From a virus, in the IMG/VR virus record IMGVR_UViG_3300050120_000053, positions 1,291 to 65,290 of that record: 64,000 bases of DNA; one strand, 5' to 3'. Below, piece after piece: positions 3,012 to 16,285 of this stretch. The position numbers were made by a program, and so were the translations under genes. The notes beneath the pieces were generated by a model. The model did not search any database. It saw only the letters and a list, made by a program, of their open reading frames with translations, and was not told the origin of the DNA. Each line of letters opens with the position of its first letter. The first letter of the stretch is position 1.

Positions 3012-3457
3012 AGTTTCGCCTCGTAGCGTGCGATCATTGACCGGAGCTTTGCCGCCTGCTTGACGCTTTCCTTGGCCGCCATCCGGCGCGCGTAATAAGA
3101 CTCGTCGATCTCCTGATCGGGTTCGCCATGCGGTTCGCCGATATAGGAATTTCCGGTCTCGCTCGAATACTCAGCCAGCGCTGCGTTGTGCTTGCGCTTG
3201 GCGTCGAGCCATACCTTGCGCGCGCGGCGCACCTCGACAGCCTGAATCCCAATGCGCTCCAGATCGCTCACGTTTCTAGGTGCGTGTGACCCGGCCAGAT
3301 CAGTCCATTCAAGATCATTGACGTGGAACCAAGCGTCGCGGGCGGCGAGGTAGACAAGCCGAAAATCTCCATCGACTCGTCGCACAATTCCCGTTTCTCC
3401 AGATCGGGTATGCGTTACCAGCGTCCCCTTGATAATCATGCCGGGACTGACTTTCAT
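3008..3457 (-). CDS. Hypothetical phage protein
   Basis: 149-aa ORF with 4-bp overlaps on both sides. Confidence 0.6.
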   Translation of the reverse strand: MKVSPGMIIKGTLVTHTRSGETGIVRRVDGDFRLVYLAARDAWFHVNDLEWTDLAGSHAPRNVSDLERIGIQAVEVRRARKVWLDAKRKHNAALAEYSSETGNSYIGEPHGEPDQEIDESYYARRMAAKESVKQAAKLRSMIARYEAKL

Positions 3458-8093: not shown

Positions 8094-8885
8094 ATGAAAC
8101 AAGGAACTCACGAAACCGGATTGCGCCTGCTCGCGGCAGCTAAGGCGATAAAACAGGCGGATGGACCGTCGGATGTTGCTCGGCTTCTGAATGTGTCCCC
8201 GCAGACAGTCACTAACTGGACAAGGCGCGGCGTATCGAAAGAAGGAATGCTATTGGCCCAGCGCCTAATTGGGGTCAATGCAACGTGGATAGAATCGGGA
8301 GAGGGGCAGATGATCGACCTTTCTGCCCAGCACACTTCTGCCTCCGACCATCCTCCGGTCACAGAGGATAGAGACGCTCTAATTAAGCGTTTGCTTCCTG
8401 AGGGAAAAGGTAACGTTGTTGCCTGGGAAACCGAGGCTGATCTGCCCGACGACCCTGAGCGAGTCTGGATTGACCGCTTTGATTATCATTTTTCGGCGGG
8501 GTCTGGCTTGATTCAGTGGGAAGTGCGGGAGAAAAAGGCGTTGCCCTTCGACATGGGGTATTTCAAGGCGCTAGGTTCAAAACCCAAGGATTGCCGGCTG
8601 CTCGCGGTGCGGGGCGACAGCATGGAGCCGTATCTTTTCAACCGCGACATGATGATGATCGACTCCACACGCACCAACGTGCGCGATGGCCAGGTCTACG
8701 CGGTCTATTTCGAAGATGAGCCGCTGGTTAAACAAATCTTTAAACAGGTCGGCGGCGGCATTGTCCTGCATTCTTACAATTCCAAATACCCCGACAAGGA
8801 AGTCCACGCCGAAAGCATGGATCTAGTGAAGATCGTCGGCGAAGTGATACACCGGTCTGGGTCGGGGTTGGCCGGTGGCAACTGA
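8094..8885 (+). CDS. cI: CI repressor (HTH + S24 self-cleavage domain)
   Basis: N-terminal HTH (SDVARLLNVSPQTVTNWTRRG); SAGSG cleavage region, VRGDSMEP serine, VKQ lysine. Confidence 0.93.
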   Translation: MKQGTHETGLRLLAAAKAIKQADGPSDVARLLNVSPQTVTNWTRRGVSKEGMLLAQRLIGVNATWIESGEGQMIDLSAQHTSASDHPPVTEDRDALIKRLLPEGKGNVVAWETEADLPDDPERVWIDRFDYHFSAGSGLIQWEVREKKALPFDMGYFKALGSKPKDCRLLAVRGDSMEPYLFNRDMMMIDSTRTNVRDGQVYAVYFEDEPLVKQIFKQVGGGIVLHSYNSKYPDKEVHAESMDLVKIVGEVIHRSGSGLAGGN

Positions 8886-9458: not shown

Positions 9459-9544
9459 AAGAGGGGCCCGCATTCTCTTTGGAATTTCGGAAGGTATTCC
9501 TCATCGCGCGATGCGCCCATCAGGCGCGGAGATACCCCCATTAG

Positions 9545-9603
9545 AGCCCCGCCCCGAGCGGGGCTTCTCATTTGTGACCAGCCCGCAACGTGCGGGCTTT
9601 TTT
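9545..9603 (+). terminator. Two tandem intrinsic terminators ending the cI operon
   Basis: AGCCCCGC-cccga-GCGGGGCT and AGCCCGCA-acg-TGCGGGCT followed by a T run. Confidence 0.85.
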
Positions 9604-9644
9604 GCGTCCGCGCCACGCACGCCATAAAAAATATTCAACAATAT

Positions 9645-9685
9645 TAAACATGGTGTTTGACACATCTATAAACATGGTGTTTAAT
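9645..9685 (+). promoter_or_regulatory. pL promoter with two OL operators
   Basis: TTGACA 9657-9662, 17 bp, TTTAAT 9680-9685; operators 9645-9659 and 9669-9683. Confidence 0.88.
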
Positions 9686-9728
9686 AGCTCCATCGGTTCA
9701 GCAAACCCGCTGACCCCAGGAGCCCAAG

Positions 9729-9965
9729 ATGATCACCACCGACCGCACCGCTACCGCCGTCCTGCGAATCGTCTCGATCTCCCTTGGCGTCTCGATTTCC
9801 GACCTGAAGCTGACTGACCGCCTGGTTGATCTCGGCGCTGACTCGCTGGACGTCTACGAAATCATCATCGACCTTGAGAAAGAGTTCGACCTTGATATCT
9901 CGGACGAAGCCGCAGCCAAGTTTCAGGCGGTGCGCGATCTCGTAGATTTTTGCTACACGAATTGA
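9729..9965 (+). CDS. acpP: Acyl carrier protein (phosphopantetheine-binding)
   Basis: DLGADSLDVYEIIIDLEKEFDLDISDEAAAKF, close to AcpP DLGADSLD..E....LEEEF; attachment Ser39; acidic, 78 aa; RBS GGAG. Confidence 0.88.
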   Translation: MITTDRTATAVLRIVSISLGVSISDLKLTDRLVDLGADSLDVYEIIIDLEKEFDLDISDEAAAKFQAVRDLVDFCYTN

Positions 9966-9976
9966 GGAGTACTGAG

Positions 9977-10165
9977 ATGCCAGAGATTCAGAAATACCAG
10001 TTCCCGAGACTCACTTCCAACAAGAAGGAAGTGCTCTGCGTTCTCGGTCAATACGTGCTTGACCGAGAAGCGCGCGCCATGTCGCAGGATGACCGCGACG
10101 AACTGGTCAAGGATACCGCGAAGGCGATCCGCTCGATTATGGCGCTGCAGCCGAGGCACCTATGA
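9977..10165 (+). CDS. Hypothetical early protein
   Basis: RBS GAGGAG then MPEIQKYQFP... Confidence 0.65.
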   Translation: MPEIQKYQFPRLTSNKKEVLCVLGQYVLDREARAMSQDDRDELVKDTAKAIRSIMALQPRHL

Positions 10166-10482
10166 ACGCGCACTCAACCCCGGGCCGCGTTGACTTCGCA
10201 TCCGACGCCCTTCAGCAGGCACTCGACGACGCAGCCAGCATTGTTGCAGCCGCTGAAGAGGAAGCACGGTACGAGGTTACTCGCGGCGAAGTCCTTGACC
10301 ACATGTCGATGAACTTCACCCGGGCCGACGACAAGCTGTTTATGCAAGCACTCCGGCGCGAAGGTCGGCAAGACATCGCGATGATGCTTGACCTGATCCA
10401 GAAGTCTTTCAAGGCGGTAGTCGCGGAGAAGCGGAGCGCGATTCTGGCGAAGAAGGCTGAGCCGGATGACGGGATTCACTGA
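10162..10482 (+). CDS. Hypothetical early protein
   Basis: ATGA overlap with the upstream gene; helical 106 aa. Confidence 0.65.
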   Translation: MNAHSTPGRVDFASDALQQALDDAASIVAAAEEEARYEVTRGEVLDHMSMNFTRADDKLFMQALRREGRQDIAMMLDLIQKSFKAVVAEKRSAILAKKAEPDDGIH

Positions 10483-10490
10483 ATAGCAGG

Positions 10491-10679
10491 CAGTACGCAG
10501 TGGGGTGCCGTGGGGAAAGTGAAATGTGCTCAAGGGGATTAGCTATCTCGCTTGCGACATTGCGTAGTTTCGGGAGAGGACATGGCTCGGCCGGGCCGGA
10601 AAGTGTACCGAAATGAGGCTTAAATCCCGCCTAGCCCGCGCTAGGAGATTGCCGGTGGCCGGCGCCCCACTGCGTATTG
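10491..10679 (+). ncRNA. Putative structured RNA closed by a 20-bp helix
   Basis: 10491-10510 pairs fully with 10660-10679 (18 Watson-Crick + 2 G-U on the + strand); inner stems GGGATT/AATCCC, CCTAGC/GCTAGG and a G(CUUG)C tetraloop. Confidence 0.65.
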
Positions 10680-10739
10680 AACAGATTTTGTAGCACGGCA
10701 CCTGACCGACTCAGGCAACAACACGAGGGGTAGTTCCAA

Positions 10740-11603
10740 ATGAAAGCAACGCAAATCACGTTATCAGTAGTCCTTGCATTTTCGGCAATCGCAGCACAGG
10801 CTCAATCTAACCCGGCAGCAGCCGGTATCGCTGGCGCAAGCGTCGGCAGCAAGATCAGCGGCACGGTCAGCCTGAGCGGTGGCGGCAGCAGCGAATCGAG
10901 CGCACTGAACAAGCAACTGTCGTCGGCAACGGTAACGACTGCGACCAGCTCGGCAGCGAACAACGCAGCGGCTGCAGTGACGGGCACGACGTTCCAGACC
11001 GGCAGCAATCAGGCGTGGAACTACACGGTCGGCAATGGCAGCGGCACGGCGGCTTCGCAAGGCACGAACAGCGCTGGAACGCTCGGCATCGCCAACGTCA
11101 ACCAGATCGGCGTCGGCAGCTTCGCTCCGGTTGGTCTGACGGGTGACCTCGCTGGTGCTGGCGGCTCGCTCGTGACCATCGGTGACAACACCAGCGTCGG
11201 CACGAACCAAGGCCAGATCAGCGCCACGCAGGGTAACGGCACATGGAACGTGACGCTCGGCGCATCGACGGGCAGCGGCGGCATCGCGATCAACCAGACC
11301 GGCAACGGCTCGTCGTCGAACAACGTGACGCTCTCGACTTCTACCACTGGTGACGTCTCGGTAAGCGCGGCGACCGGCAACGTGAATCTGCAAACGGGCT
11401 TGGGTCCGGTGCAAGGCGACGGCTCGCAAGCGGCGATCTACACGAACCTTGGCGGCGGCACAAACACGCCGACCGGAACAGGTGGATTCGTAGCTGGCGC
11501 GAGCGGCAACGCGGCAGTGATCGACGCAACCGGTACGGGATCAGCTCTGATCCAGTCCATTAACCCCGGCGTGTCGCAACTGGCAACCGTGACCGGCCTG
11601 TAA
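10740..11603 (+). CDS. Secreted G/S/T/A/N-rich low-complexity protein (candidate fibre/amyloid-like subunit)
   Basis: Sec signal ending AQA at aa 21; no Cys, Arg or His; about 8 charged residues in the mature chain. Confidence 0.8.
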   Translation: MKATQITLSVVLAFSAIAAQAQSNPAAAGIAGASVGSKISGTVSLSGGGSSESSALNKQLSSATVTTATSSAANNAAAAVTGTTFQTGSNQAWNYTVGNGSGTAASQGTNSAGTLGIANVNQIGVGSFAPVGLTGDLAGAGGSLVTIGDNTSVGTNQGQISATQGNGTWNVTLGASTGSGGIAINQTGNGSSSNNVTLSTSTTGDVSVSAATGNVNLQTGLGPVQGDGSQAAIYTNLGGGTNTPTGTGGFVAGASGNAAVIDATGTGSALIQSINPGVSQLATVTGL

Positions 11604-11663
11604 TTCGTCAACTACGTGGGCGCGCTTGCGAGGGCGCGACCCGTGAATATCTCGGAGTAGATC

Positions 11664-12299
11664 GTGAAAAAAATACTAATTGCACTGGCCGCGATTTTGA
11701 TCGTCAGCTCAGCCCAGGCGCAGACAGCGGGGGCGAATTCTCAGGTTACATCGCAGGGTCAGGCGAATGCTGGCGGGGGAACGGCGGAACTCGCCTACGC
11801 GCCGGTTTCGAACATTGCTGGCACGGAATACAAGGTGAACTCAGCGATTGCTCCCGGCCTTGTCGCGGGATTCAATACCTGCACCGGATCGGACGTTGCG
11901 GCGCTTCAACTTGGAAGCGTTGGGCTGTCAGTGGGCGGCACGAAGCCGGATGACGCCTGCAACCTGCGCAGCGATAGCGGGCAGATTTATCAGATGGGCG
12001 ATCACGCTGCAGCGTTCGCGCGCCTCTGCGAGGACGAAGCGAATCACTACGCGATCAACGTGACCGGCGGGATCACCTATAAGCGTGATGACGGCGCGAC
12101 CGTGCACCGTGCATGTCCGATGCCGCGCAAAGACTGGATTGCAGCGGGTCGCCCGTTGCTTGACCCGATCACGGGCCAGCCGTACACCGATCCGCCCATT
12201 GTCGTGATGCAGTCGAAGGCCGACCCGAACGTCGCCATCATCGAACAGCGCGCCGCGCAGATCGCGAAGACGCAAGACCAAATCGTCTCATCGAAGTAA
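11664..12299 (+). CDS. Secreted 4-Cys partner protein
   Basis: Signal ending AQA at aa 19; APGL..GFNTCTGS...GLSVGGT..DDACNLR...YQMG...AA..RLCED. Confidence 0.8.
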   Translation: MKKILIALAAILIVSSAQAQTAGANSQVTSQGQANAGGGTAELAYAPVSNIAGTEYKVNSAIAPGLVAGFNTCTGSDVAALQLGSVGLSVGGTKPDDACNLRSDSGQIYQMGDHAAAFARLCEDEANHYAINVTGGITYKRDDGATVHRACPMPRKDWIAAGRPLLDPITGQPYTDPPIVVMQSKADPNVAIIEQRAAQIAKTQDQIVSSK

Positions 12300-12308
12300 G
12301 GAGCAGTC

Positions 12309-12503
12309 ATGTCACTTTTCCGCAAGCCATCGCTCAGCCGCGAGCGCATAGAAGCCCTGAAATTCGAAGCCATGATCTTGCGCAATGAGCGTCGGCTAGC
12401 GGAAGCGAAGGCGCGGCTGAGGGAGCGAGGGATTGACCCGATGCCGATCGGCGGGTGGTATGTCCCGACCAATGTGGCGCGTAGTTTTTCTAGGGGGTTG
12501 TGA
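12309..12503 (+). CDS. Hypothetical phage protein
   Basis: RBS AAGGAG; ARLRERGIDP motif. Confidence 0.65.
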   Translation: MSLFRKPSLSRERIEALKFEAMILRNERRLAEAKARLRERGIDPMPIGGWYVPTNVARSFSRGL

Positions 12504-12796
12504 TGAACGAATCGAATGCACCAGTGGTTATCGCCATGGACGAGATTGTCTCGTCGCAGATCCACGGTATTGGTCACGATGCACCGACGAGCACCTTGGC
12601 GATTCGGTTCAAGGCGAAGGACGGAAGCCCGGCCGCGCTGTATTTCTACCAGAACTTCACGGCTGAAGAGTTCGCGGCATTGAAGGGTGCCGAGTCGATA
12701 GGCAGCCACTTTTATCGAAATATAAAGCCGAGCAAAGAAAAATATCCCTTTGTCTGCATTGAGAAGATGCCGGCGGCCACTGAGGAACCGAAATGA
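12500..12796 (+). CDS. KTSC-domain protein
   Basis: VSSQIHGIGHD..T.TLAIRF......Y.Y..F..EEF..L..AESIGSHF..NIK. Confidence 0.85.
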   Translation: MMNESNAPVVIAMDEIVSSQIHGIGHDAPTSTLAIRFKAKDGSPAALYFYQNFTAEEFAALKGAESIGSHFYRNIKPSKEKYPFVCIEKMPAATEEPK

Positions 12797-13857
12797 GCAC
12801 TGCACTTTCAACGCGTCAGGAGTTTGGCGCACAGGAATCCACGCATGCGCTAGTCGAGACGGCATCGACGGCCATTGCAGCCAAGGCTAAAGCGATGGTC
12901 GAGGCACGGTACGTCATGGCGATGCGCCAGCCGCGCAACTGGGACCAGGTTCGTCAGGATCTGATGGCCGAGTGCAAGCGCCCCTCGTTTGCGCATAACA
13001 AAAGCGCCTACTACCGAAAGCCGATTGGTAAAGGCGTTGAGGGGCTGGGCATTCGGTTCGTCGAGGTCGCGTTGCGCTGCATGAAGAATGTGCTGGTCGA
13101 AACATCCATGACATTCGAGGACGAGTCGAAAGAGATCCACTGCGTAAGCGTGACGGATCTCGAATCGAACTTGACCTATCCGCTGGATGTTCGAGTGTCG
13201 AAGACGGTCGAACGCTCGAATCCGATGGATGACGGATCGTACATTTCGGTTCGCAAGAACAGTTACGGCAAGCTCACCTACACCGTCCCGGCCAACGATG
13301 ATGACTTGCTCAACAAGCGCGGCGCGCTGATTTCAAAGGCGATGAGAACGCTTGGCCTGCGCATCATCCCCGGCGACCTACAGGACGAGGCCGAAGAAAT
13401 CATCAAGGCCGTCCGCATGGATGAGGCCGCACGCGATCCTGGCGCGGAACGTAAGCGCATCGCCGATGCCTTCGGAGAAATCGGCGTGAAGGCTGCGGAC
13501 CTTGTTTCTTTCTTGGGCCACCCGCTCGACACATGTTCTCCGACTGAGTTGGTCGGTCTGCGCGGTATCTACGGTGCGATCAAGGACGGCGAGGCCACTT
13601 GGAAGTCCGTCATGGATAACAAGGAAGAACAGATGGACCGCGAGGACATCAAGCCGCCACAAAGCGGGGATGGCACCGCGAAGGTGATCCCAGTTTGTTC
13701 CGACGAGGACTTCAAGAAGAAAACCCCGGAATGGCGCAAGTTGATTCTCGAAAAGAAGAAGTCGGTCGCGGACCTGACGGCGATGATCGAGACGAAGATG
13801 CGCCTGACTGATGACCAGAAACTAACGATTGACGCATGGAGTCATGATGACGAATGA
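12793..13857 (+). CDS. Putative single-strand annealing/recombination protein
   Basis: Adjacent to YqaJ exonuclease; EARYVMAMRQPRNWD...YRKP.GK..EGL.IRF.E.A. Confidence 0.6.
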   Translation: MSTALSTRQEFGAQESTHALVETASTAIAAKAKAMVEARYVMAMRQPRNWDQVRQDLMAECKRPSFAHNKSAYYRKPIGKGVEGLGIRFVEVALRCMKNVLVETSMTFEDESKEIHCVSVTDLESNLTYPLDVRVSKTVERSNPMDDGSYISVRKNSYGKLTYTVPANDDDLLNKRGALISKAMRTLGLRIIPGDLQDEAEEIIKAVRMDEAARDPGAERKRIADAFGEIGVKAADLVSFLGHPLDTCSPTELVGLRGIYGAIKDGEATWKSVMDNKEEQMDREDIKPPQSGDGTAKVIPVCSDEDFKKKTPEWRKLILEKKKSVADLTAMIETKMRLTDDQKLTIDAWSHDDE

Positions 13858-16132: not shown

Positions 16133-16205
16133 ACGTGGCGGGGGTTGGGGGGGGGGCTATCGGAAATGTTGGGTGATAGGAATGTTTGGCGTTTGATGAA
16201 TGCAT

Positions 16206-16251
16206 TAAACACCATGTTTCGTTTGACACACGTATAAACATGGTGTTTAAT
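16206..16251 (+). promoter_or_regulatory. Second pL-like promoter with two CI-type operators
   Basis: TTGACA 16223-16228, 17 bp, TTTAAT 16246-16251; operators 16206-16220 and 16235-16249; near copy of 9657-9686. Confidence 0.88.
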
Positions 16252-16285
16252 ACTTCACATCAGCCAACCCACCCCGGAGTCCCCA

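Follow-up and report, generated by a model that had tools for sequence, protein, structure and literature searches.

The DNA analysed here (the window) is a stretch of 64,000 nucleotides taken from a virus record of 70,257 bp (IMG/VR) of peat origin, which CheckV rates as complete. A gene for a CI-like HTH/peptidase-S24 repressor (8094-8885) is followed by two terminator-like hairpins (9544-9598) and by operator-like repeats (TAAACATGGTGTTT, 9642-9692), the presumed start of an early operon. On the + strand come an orphan acyl carrier protein (ACP) gene (9729-9965), a small ORF (9950-10165) and a 106-aa ORF of no known family (10162-10482), whose orthologues mark the syntenic elements considered below. 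Immediately downstream lies a 189-base element (10491-10679, + strand) with an interior of 149 nt. The element sits between two early genes, the second being a 287-aa gene with an N-terminal signal-peptide-like sequence (10740-11603, + strand), which has a partner gene at 11664-12299 (+ strand). A conserved gene further on, phrog_3657 (12793-13857), served as the anchor gene for recovering a wider family. The element is found about 800 nt and three ORFs 3' of the operator region. Neither a promoter-like nor a terminator-like site flanks it, and nothing terminator-like occurs in 10680-12600, so that transcription of the operon probably runs straight through it. Most simply, it belongs to the early transcript of a repressor-controlled operon, where the sequence-only reading, a first description of this DNA, had also placed it. 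An 18-bp palindrome at 16202-16253 (GCATTAAACACCATGTTT / AAACATGGTGTTTAATAC) repeats the operator-like motif of 9642-9692 and is probably a second operator region of the same repressor. Among contigs from four peat runs, 10491-10679 is covered only in the probable source run.

The element is closed by a helix, P1, formed from its two ends. The 5' strand (10491-10510, +) begins 8 nt past the stop codon of the 106-aa ORF and pairs with 10660-10679 (+) at all 20 positions, as first claimed, through 18 Watson-Crick and two wobble pairs. Both wobbles (G10493-U10677 and U10506-G10664) become C-A mismatches on the - strand, which bears out the remark that they are G-U on the + strand only. No long-range helix elsewhere in the 64-kb window is as long as P1, and in 300 dinucleotide shuffles of the element none reaches its 20 bp (shuffle maximum 15). 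An RNase III site calls for roughly 20 bp of near-perfect double-stranded RNA in the transcript, a length that P1 supplies with 20 of 20 positions paired. The whole element folds with -89.1 kcal/mol on the + strand (z = -4.33) and with -68.2 kcal/mol on the - strand (z = -2.70).

The interior (10511-10659, + strand), hereafter the cargo, behaves differently. A three-branch fold is predicted for it by minimum free energy only, and when it is folded alone its z-score is +0.51, with 140 of 200 shuffles equally good; a structured cargo is thus not demonstrated for the window. The interior stems listed in the sequence-only reading are present but no better than chance, and the repeat GGAAAGTG at 10514 and 10598 is likewise real, but its three copies in the window are within expectation. 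In the window element, only the closing helix is statistically special. The absence of a match to a known RNA family was confirmed with Rfam 15, which gives no hit at gathering threshold in the 64-kb window and, for 10300-10900 at E up to 10, only chance-level scores for snoZ242 (19 bits) and isrG (8 bits). ARAGORN reports no tRNA in the window, no tRNA match is obtained in 10300-10900 at E up to 10, and the element contains no T-loop-like motif, anticodon arm or tRNA score. No homologue of the window-type cargo occurs in 95 related loci or 401 Burkholderiaceae genomes. Two specific candidates were rejected. A CsrA/RsmA sponge is not indicated, as GGA counts lie within those of shuffles in all seven syntenic elements (two in L003, one in L008), and a retron msr-msd RNA is not indicated either, since neither the ten neighbouring ORFs scanned nor the genes called on the syntenic contigs contain a reverse transcriptase domain.

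The 106-aa protein upstream of the element has eleven relatives (61-72% identity), all on metagenome contigs and with conserved gene order. Downstream of the orthologous gene, which encodes 99-108 aa, there are six distinct elements: L003 (with redundant copies L004 and L005), L006 (also L007), L008, L011 (also L012), L016 and L022. They are 142-189 nt long and are closed by a P1 of 14-22 bp, the sequence of which differs while the pairing is kept throughout. P1 reads CAGUACGCAGUGGGGUGCCG in the window, CUGCUUAAGGGUGGCG in one group and CUUUUCAGUGGAUGG with variable bases in another. A core, CAGUGG/CCACUG, is common to the window and the group A relatives L006 and L011, and is shortened to AGUGG/CCACU in L016 and L022. 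The non-Watson-Crick pairs of the syntenic helices comprise ten G-U, no A-C and two other mismatches, with L016 only partly counted. One additional small ORF separates the upstream gene from the element in L006 and L016. L008 and L006 are 89% identical in the upstream gene and 52% in the element, while for L016 and L022 the values are 70% and 82%. In these comparisons the element diverges faster than the gene before it and independently of that gene, as a mosaic, independent module.

IMG/VR protein searches with the two flanking genes give no match, a metagenome scan returns one locus and a genome scan none, and a cultured-phage collection holds no match to the element DNA or to the flanking proteins. 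The anchor gene is present in the Ralstonia phages Hennie and Firinga, whose compact early operon leaves no room for an element. In two related loci (L013 ~1990-2050 and L014 ~660-715) a small three-way junction replaces the large element; two hairpins are enclosed by a GAUC/GAUC helix, and the stem of one of them is shorter in one locus than in the other (CCGCU-GAGA-AGCGG vs CCGC-UUCG-GCGG). Protein-coding inserts of 56, ~80 and 198 aa are found between the 104-aa gene and the leader of the secreted-type gene (L006 1113-1283, L016 ~482-725, L009 1196-1792), and this gap acts as a site at which accessory modules of various kinds are inserted.

A search with the anchor gene, phrog_3657, recovered 95 related loci, 15 in prophages (Caballeronia, Paraburkholderia, Pandoraea, Ralstonia, Herbaspirillum, Dyella and other genera) and 80 on viral contigs. 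A strand-neutral scan of these loci for long-range helices yields 17 distinct clamps, as such closing helices with their interiors are called here, of 18-24 bp. All 17 fall within the early operon on the upstream side of the anchor gene; the downstream side has none. Beyond the syntenic elements, about 20 clamps of this kind occur in early operons of Burkholderiales phages and prophages related to that of the window, one of them in the Caballeronia glathei DSM 50014 prophage (NZ_JFHC01000026.1, about 89740-89864), and many related phages have no element. Family members are intercistronic and lie on the coding strand; P1 has a median of 19 pairs, and the elements have a median length of 139 nt (range 96-247 nt). 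The 15 clearest elements, which include the window element and three syntenic copies, contain 22 G-U and no A-C pairs in P1, while six weaker elements contain seven of each.

The best-sampled sequence class, for which an alignment of 11 sequences was made, is R1 (UUUUC..AUGGCG clamp; L006, L043, L011, L026 and others). Pairing is possible in 95.3% of its cells, and 15 of the 22 P1 pairs have changed on both sides. None of 500 shuffles is as good, and sliding the partner strand reduces pairing to 33-50%. Such compensatory change is what a check for covariation among homologues was to look for, and together with the preference for G-U over A-C it upholds the earlier suggestion that the + strand is under selection at the RNA level. 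A covariance model of the class finds further copies, including second copies in tandem, and matches five of 151 Burkholderiaceae genomes, though one of these hits (L125) looks spurious and may fall in a coding region. The window element is not detected by this 11-member model at E up to 1, and its membership of the family therefore rests on synteny, architecture and the shared 6-bp core.

Several local features recur around the clamps. A small hairpin with the loop GGGAGU or AGGAGU, e.g. GCUGGGAGUAGC, is conserved within 40 nt before several of them (L026 ~1905-1925, L047 ~1590-1610, L054 ~3128-3148, L056 ~545-565, L097 ~1780-1800). Seven elements (L016, L022, L054, L071, L121, L123, L124) share a G-G mismatch 4-5 pairs from the outer end of P1 (UUGAGUG / CACUGAA), a position taken by a C-G pair in other members; this mismatch may mark a recognition feature or one that restricts cleavage. 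Two of the viral contigs (L054 10291-10473 and L060 10100-10281) also match strongly, at 161-168 bits, the Rfam RT-15 RNA, which is linked to reverse transcriptases. These matches lie about 4-5 kb 3' of the anchor gene, and the window has none.

While P1 is kept, the cargo is not. The interiors of 33 elements fall into 26 BLAST clusters, and on average, with a fold z-score of -0.22, they are no more stable than shuffles. No peptide is conserved among them, the ORFs in related elements differing in frame, length and strand. A few cargos are recognizable. One element (L065, also L066 and L067) scores 44.4 bits on the Rfam tRNA model (RF00005); the T-arm of this tRNA-like RNA is canonical, its D-loop is enlarged and its anticodon loop abnormal, and P1 lengthens its acceptor stem to 19 bp. 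It is the middle one of three consecutive clamps (L065 1332-1427, 1680-1788 and 1791-1919) in an ORF-poor stretch of 820 nt (1190-2014), and ARAGORN assigns it a 19-nt D-loop insertion and a 2-nt "anticodon". In another element (L083) a canonical T-arm adjoins the 3' strand of P1. Cargo types can be sequence-conserved across genomes, as in L121, L123 and L124 or in L006 and L043. Tandem arrays of clamps are found in L054, L056, L064, L065 and L082. A helix-pattern scan of IMG/VR gave one match, on a 392-kb contig of otherwise unrelated sequence (L002 302-508). There, a 19-bp inverted repeat (GAAGCGAAUCGCAGUGGGG and its complement) surrounds ~170 nt with a T-arm-like GCGGGUUCGAAUCCC on the - strand, in which ARAGORN finds no tRNA. 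The match is probably due to chance, its count being within the estimated number of random matches, and it may otherwise be one more clamp, here of a large unrelated phage, that encloses a tRNA-like RNA.

An intercistronic duplex of about two turns on the transcribed strand has the form of an RNase III substrate, and the element is on these grounds read as an RNase III-delimited cassette; the median of 19 pairs in P1 likewise fits two turns of double-stranded RNA. According to this reading, the element would be co-transcribed with the repressor-controlled early operon, and two 20-nt segments 149 nt apart form a near-perfect duplex of about two helical turns, the conserved and selected part. 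The host's double-strand-specific RNase III would be expected to cut this putative substrate, separating the upstream early mRNA from the downstream mRNA and freeing the enclosed RNA of 150-190 nt with a blunt, exonuclease-resistant duplex end. The enclosed RNA would then be an exchangeable cargo, almost wholly different between related phages and tRNA-like in a few; it should accumulate as a discrete species and might act in trans. Against this reading, a plain hairpin would be enough for RNase III, and the duplex by itself leaves the length of the interior unexplained. We assign a probability of about one half to the view that the element is an RNase III-type duplex which excises and protects a variable RNA. 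The clamp family as a whole looks like an undescribed slot for small RNAs cut from the early transcript, and no published description of such cassettes was found in the literature searched.

The closest competitor, which we consider possible but rather unlikely, holds that the element acts purely in cis. The duplex would be a processing or stability element, either cut or serving as an exonuclease block, that uncouples the upstream early genes from the downstream genes in translation and decay, and the interior would be a functionless spacer. It draws on the fact that P1 alone is conserved and exceptional and that the element is always intercistronic and on the coding strand; a cargo that is a mere spacer is favoured by the lack of a thermodynamic signal in the interiors, nearly all of which are unrelated. 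However, a spacer as long as 60-210 nt is more than a processing hairpin needs, and the tRNA-like interior and the one with a T-arm are clearly shaped RNAs. These tRNA-like cargos, the persistence of cargo types across genomes and the tandem arrays, which with up to three clamps resemble gene arrays more than punctuation, favour a cargo that acts in trans.

The sequence-only reading also considered a leader that controls the secreted two-gene module 60 nt downstream, at the level of translation or transcription. The position is suggestive, as the window element and its six distinct syntenic counterparts all lie directly 5' of the signal-peptide-like gene. The leader of that gene has features of its own, in the order of an AUUUUGYAG motif (10685-10693, +), a 5-bp hairpin (CCUGA-CCGAC-UCAGG, 10701-10715, +), a C/A-rich stretch and the ribosome-binding site. 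In relatives the hairpin reads GCACG-CCGGACGC-CGUGC (L003 2326-2343, L009 1818-1835, L017 ~12148-12166 on the - strand), with all five pairs changed and pairing kept. This motif and hairpin may constitute a protein-binding or stability site for the secreted-type gene. The hairpin is independent of the large element, since L009/L010 and L017 have the same motif, hairpin, ribosome-binding region and secreted-type gene but no element. Conversely, the gene behind clamps with this architecture in L042 and L043 is a non-secreted one of 101 aa, and other clamps are found before the ACP gene (L026, L056, L097) or after it (L060). The 60-nt leader 3' of the window element is unstructured with its ribosome-binding site open, and the duplex energies of the element with this leader lie within shuffled controls. 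The suggested leader role is thus not supported, and we regard it as very unlikely.

More improbable still is the other regulatory function first put forward, that of a processive antiterminator RNA of the HK022 put type, which would modify the RNA polymerase transcribing it. No N-like gene is recognized, and some relatives (L026, L056, L097) have their clamp close to where the early operon begins, within a long stretch of non-coding sequence. In the window, however, the element is ~800 nt and three ORFs away from the operator region, with no terminator-like site after it. An RNA that binds the polymerase should moreover keep a conserved core, whereas the interiors are hypervariable and unrelated, and the element is missing from many related phages.

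A feature acting at the DNA level, such as an invertible promoter segment, a MITE or a cruciform bound by a protein, is hardly credible, even though invertons and MITEs are classically recognized by inverted repeats of this kind, 20 bp long and 100-250 bp apart. The element is present once in the 70-kb phage, and that of L026 once in its 8.6-Mb Caballeronia host genome, which speaks against a MITE. Inversion is opposed by the strand bias of the mismatches (22 G-U, no A-C), by the lack of a promoter-like site inside the element (a weak test) and by the copies from independent samples, which align colinear and unflipped (L003/L004, L006/L007); no recombinase is found among the ten neighbouring ORFs scanned. 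The least probable option is that the element encodes the 30-residue peptide of the ORF at 10524-10616, which does exist as described, with an ATG and GGGGA seven nt upstream, but has no counterpart in any related element and a start region buried in the predicted fold.

Returning to the RNase III-delimited cassette, its function may be sought beyond the window, although we advance the following only as a doubtful extension. Temperate phages of several proteobacterial groups would share an RNA slot in which an RNase III-cut duplex of ~20 bp excises and stabilizes a fast-evolving cargo, perhaps in part tRNA-derived, from the first transcript made after induction or infection, and the cargos, acting in trans, would serve host takeover or anti-defence as decoys or inhibitors. 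Such a role would explain the extreme diversity and modular exchange of the cargo. If the duplex is an excision signal, the slot would amount to a large unannotated reservoir of phage-encoded small RNAs, expressed at the earliest lytic stage and evolving like anti-defence genes. For annotation, gaps of this kind should not be read as empty or as spurious small ORFs; gene callers place ORFs over several of the elements.

Known phage RNAs offer several comparisons. The c4 RNAs of P1 and P7 and the CI RNA of P4 are leader-derived regulatory RNAs of 70-80 nt. RNase P processes them, and the targets to which they are complementary are on the transcript that contains them. Like these, the RNA proposed to be excised here would be a small RNA from a phage operon transcript and not the product of its own gene. 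However, the element has no match to the Rfam C4 model and no target complementarity above controls. A second likeness is to phage tRNAs and tRNA-like RNAs (RF00005; species 1 and 2 RNAs of T4), given that the clamp of L065/L066/L067 encloses a cloverleaf with a canonical T-arm and that the T-arm of L083 adjoins the 3' strand of P1. The window element differs in lacking a T-loop, an anticodon arm and a tRNA score, and the tRNA-like relatives have an acceptor stem of 19-21 bp and an abnormal anticodon loop.

The nearest parallels are RNase III duplexes, which include the stems of 16S and 23S rRNA operons, the stem of the Bacillus subtilis scRNA precursor, the T7 sites R0.3-R1.3, the lambda N-leader and sib. 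RNase III excises rRNAs and the scRNA from flanking stems, and it cuts early transcripts of T7 and lambda between genes. Like these, the clamp is a near-perfect helix of ~20 bp whose two strands flank an RNA inside a larger transcript. It lies between cistrons of a phage early operon, and compensatory changes preserve its pairing. In contrast to the clamps, the sites in T7 and lambda are simple, small-loop hairpins that enclose no cargo. The rRNA and scRNA stems each flank one conserved RNA, whereas the RNA flanked by the clamp, for which cleavage is a proposal, differs in almost every phage. Should the proposal be correct, these cassettes would be a natural counterpart of the engineered stem scaffolds that stabilize RNA aptamers.
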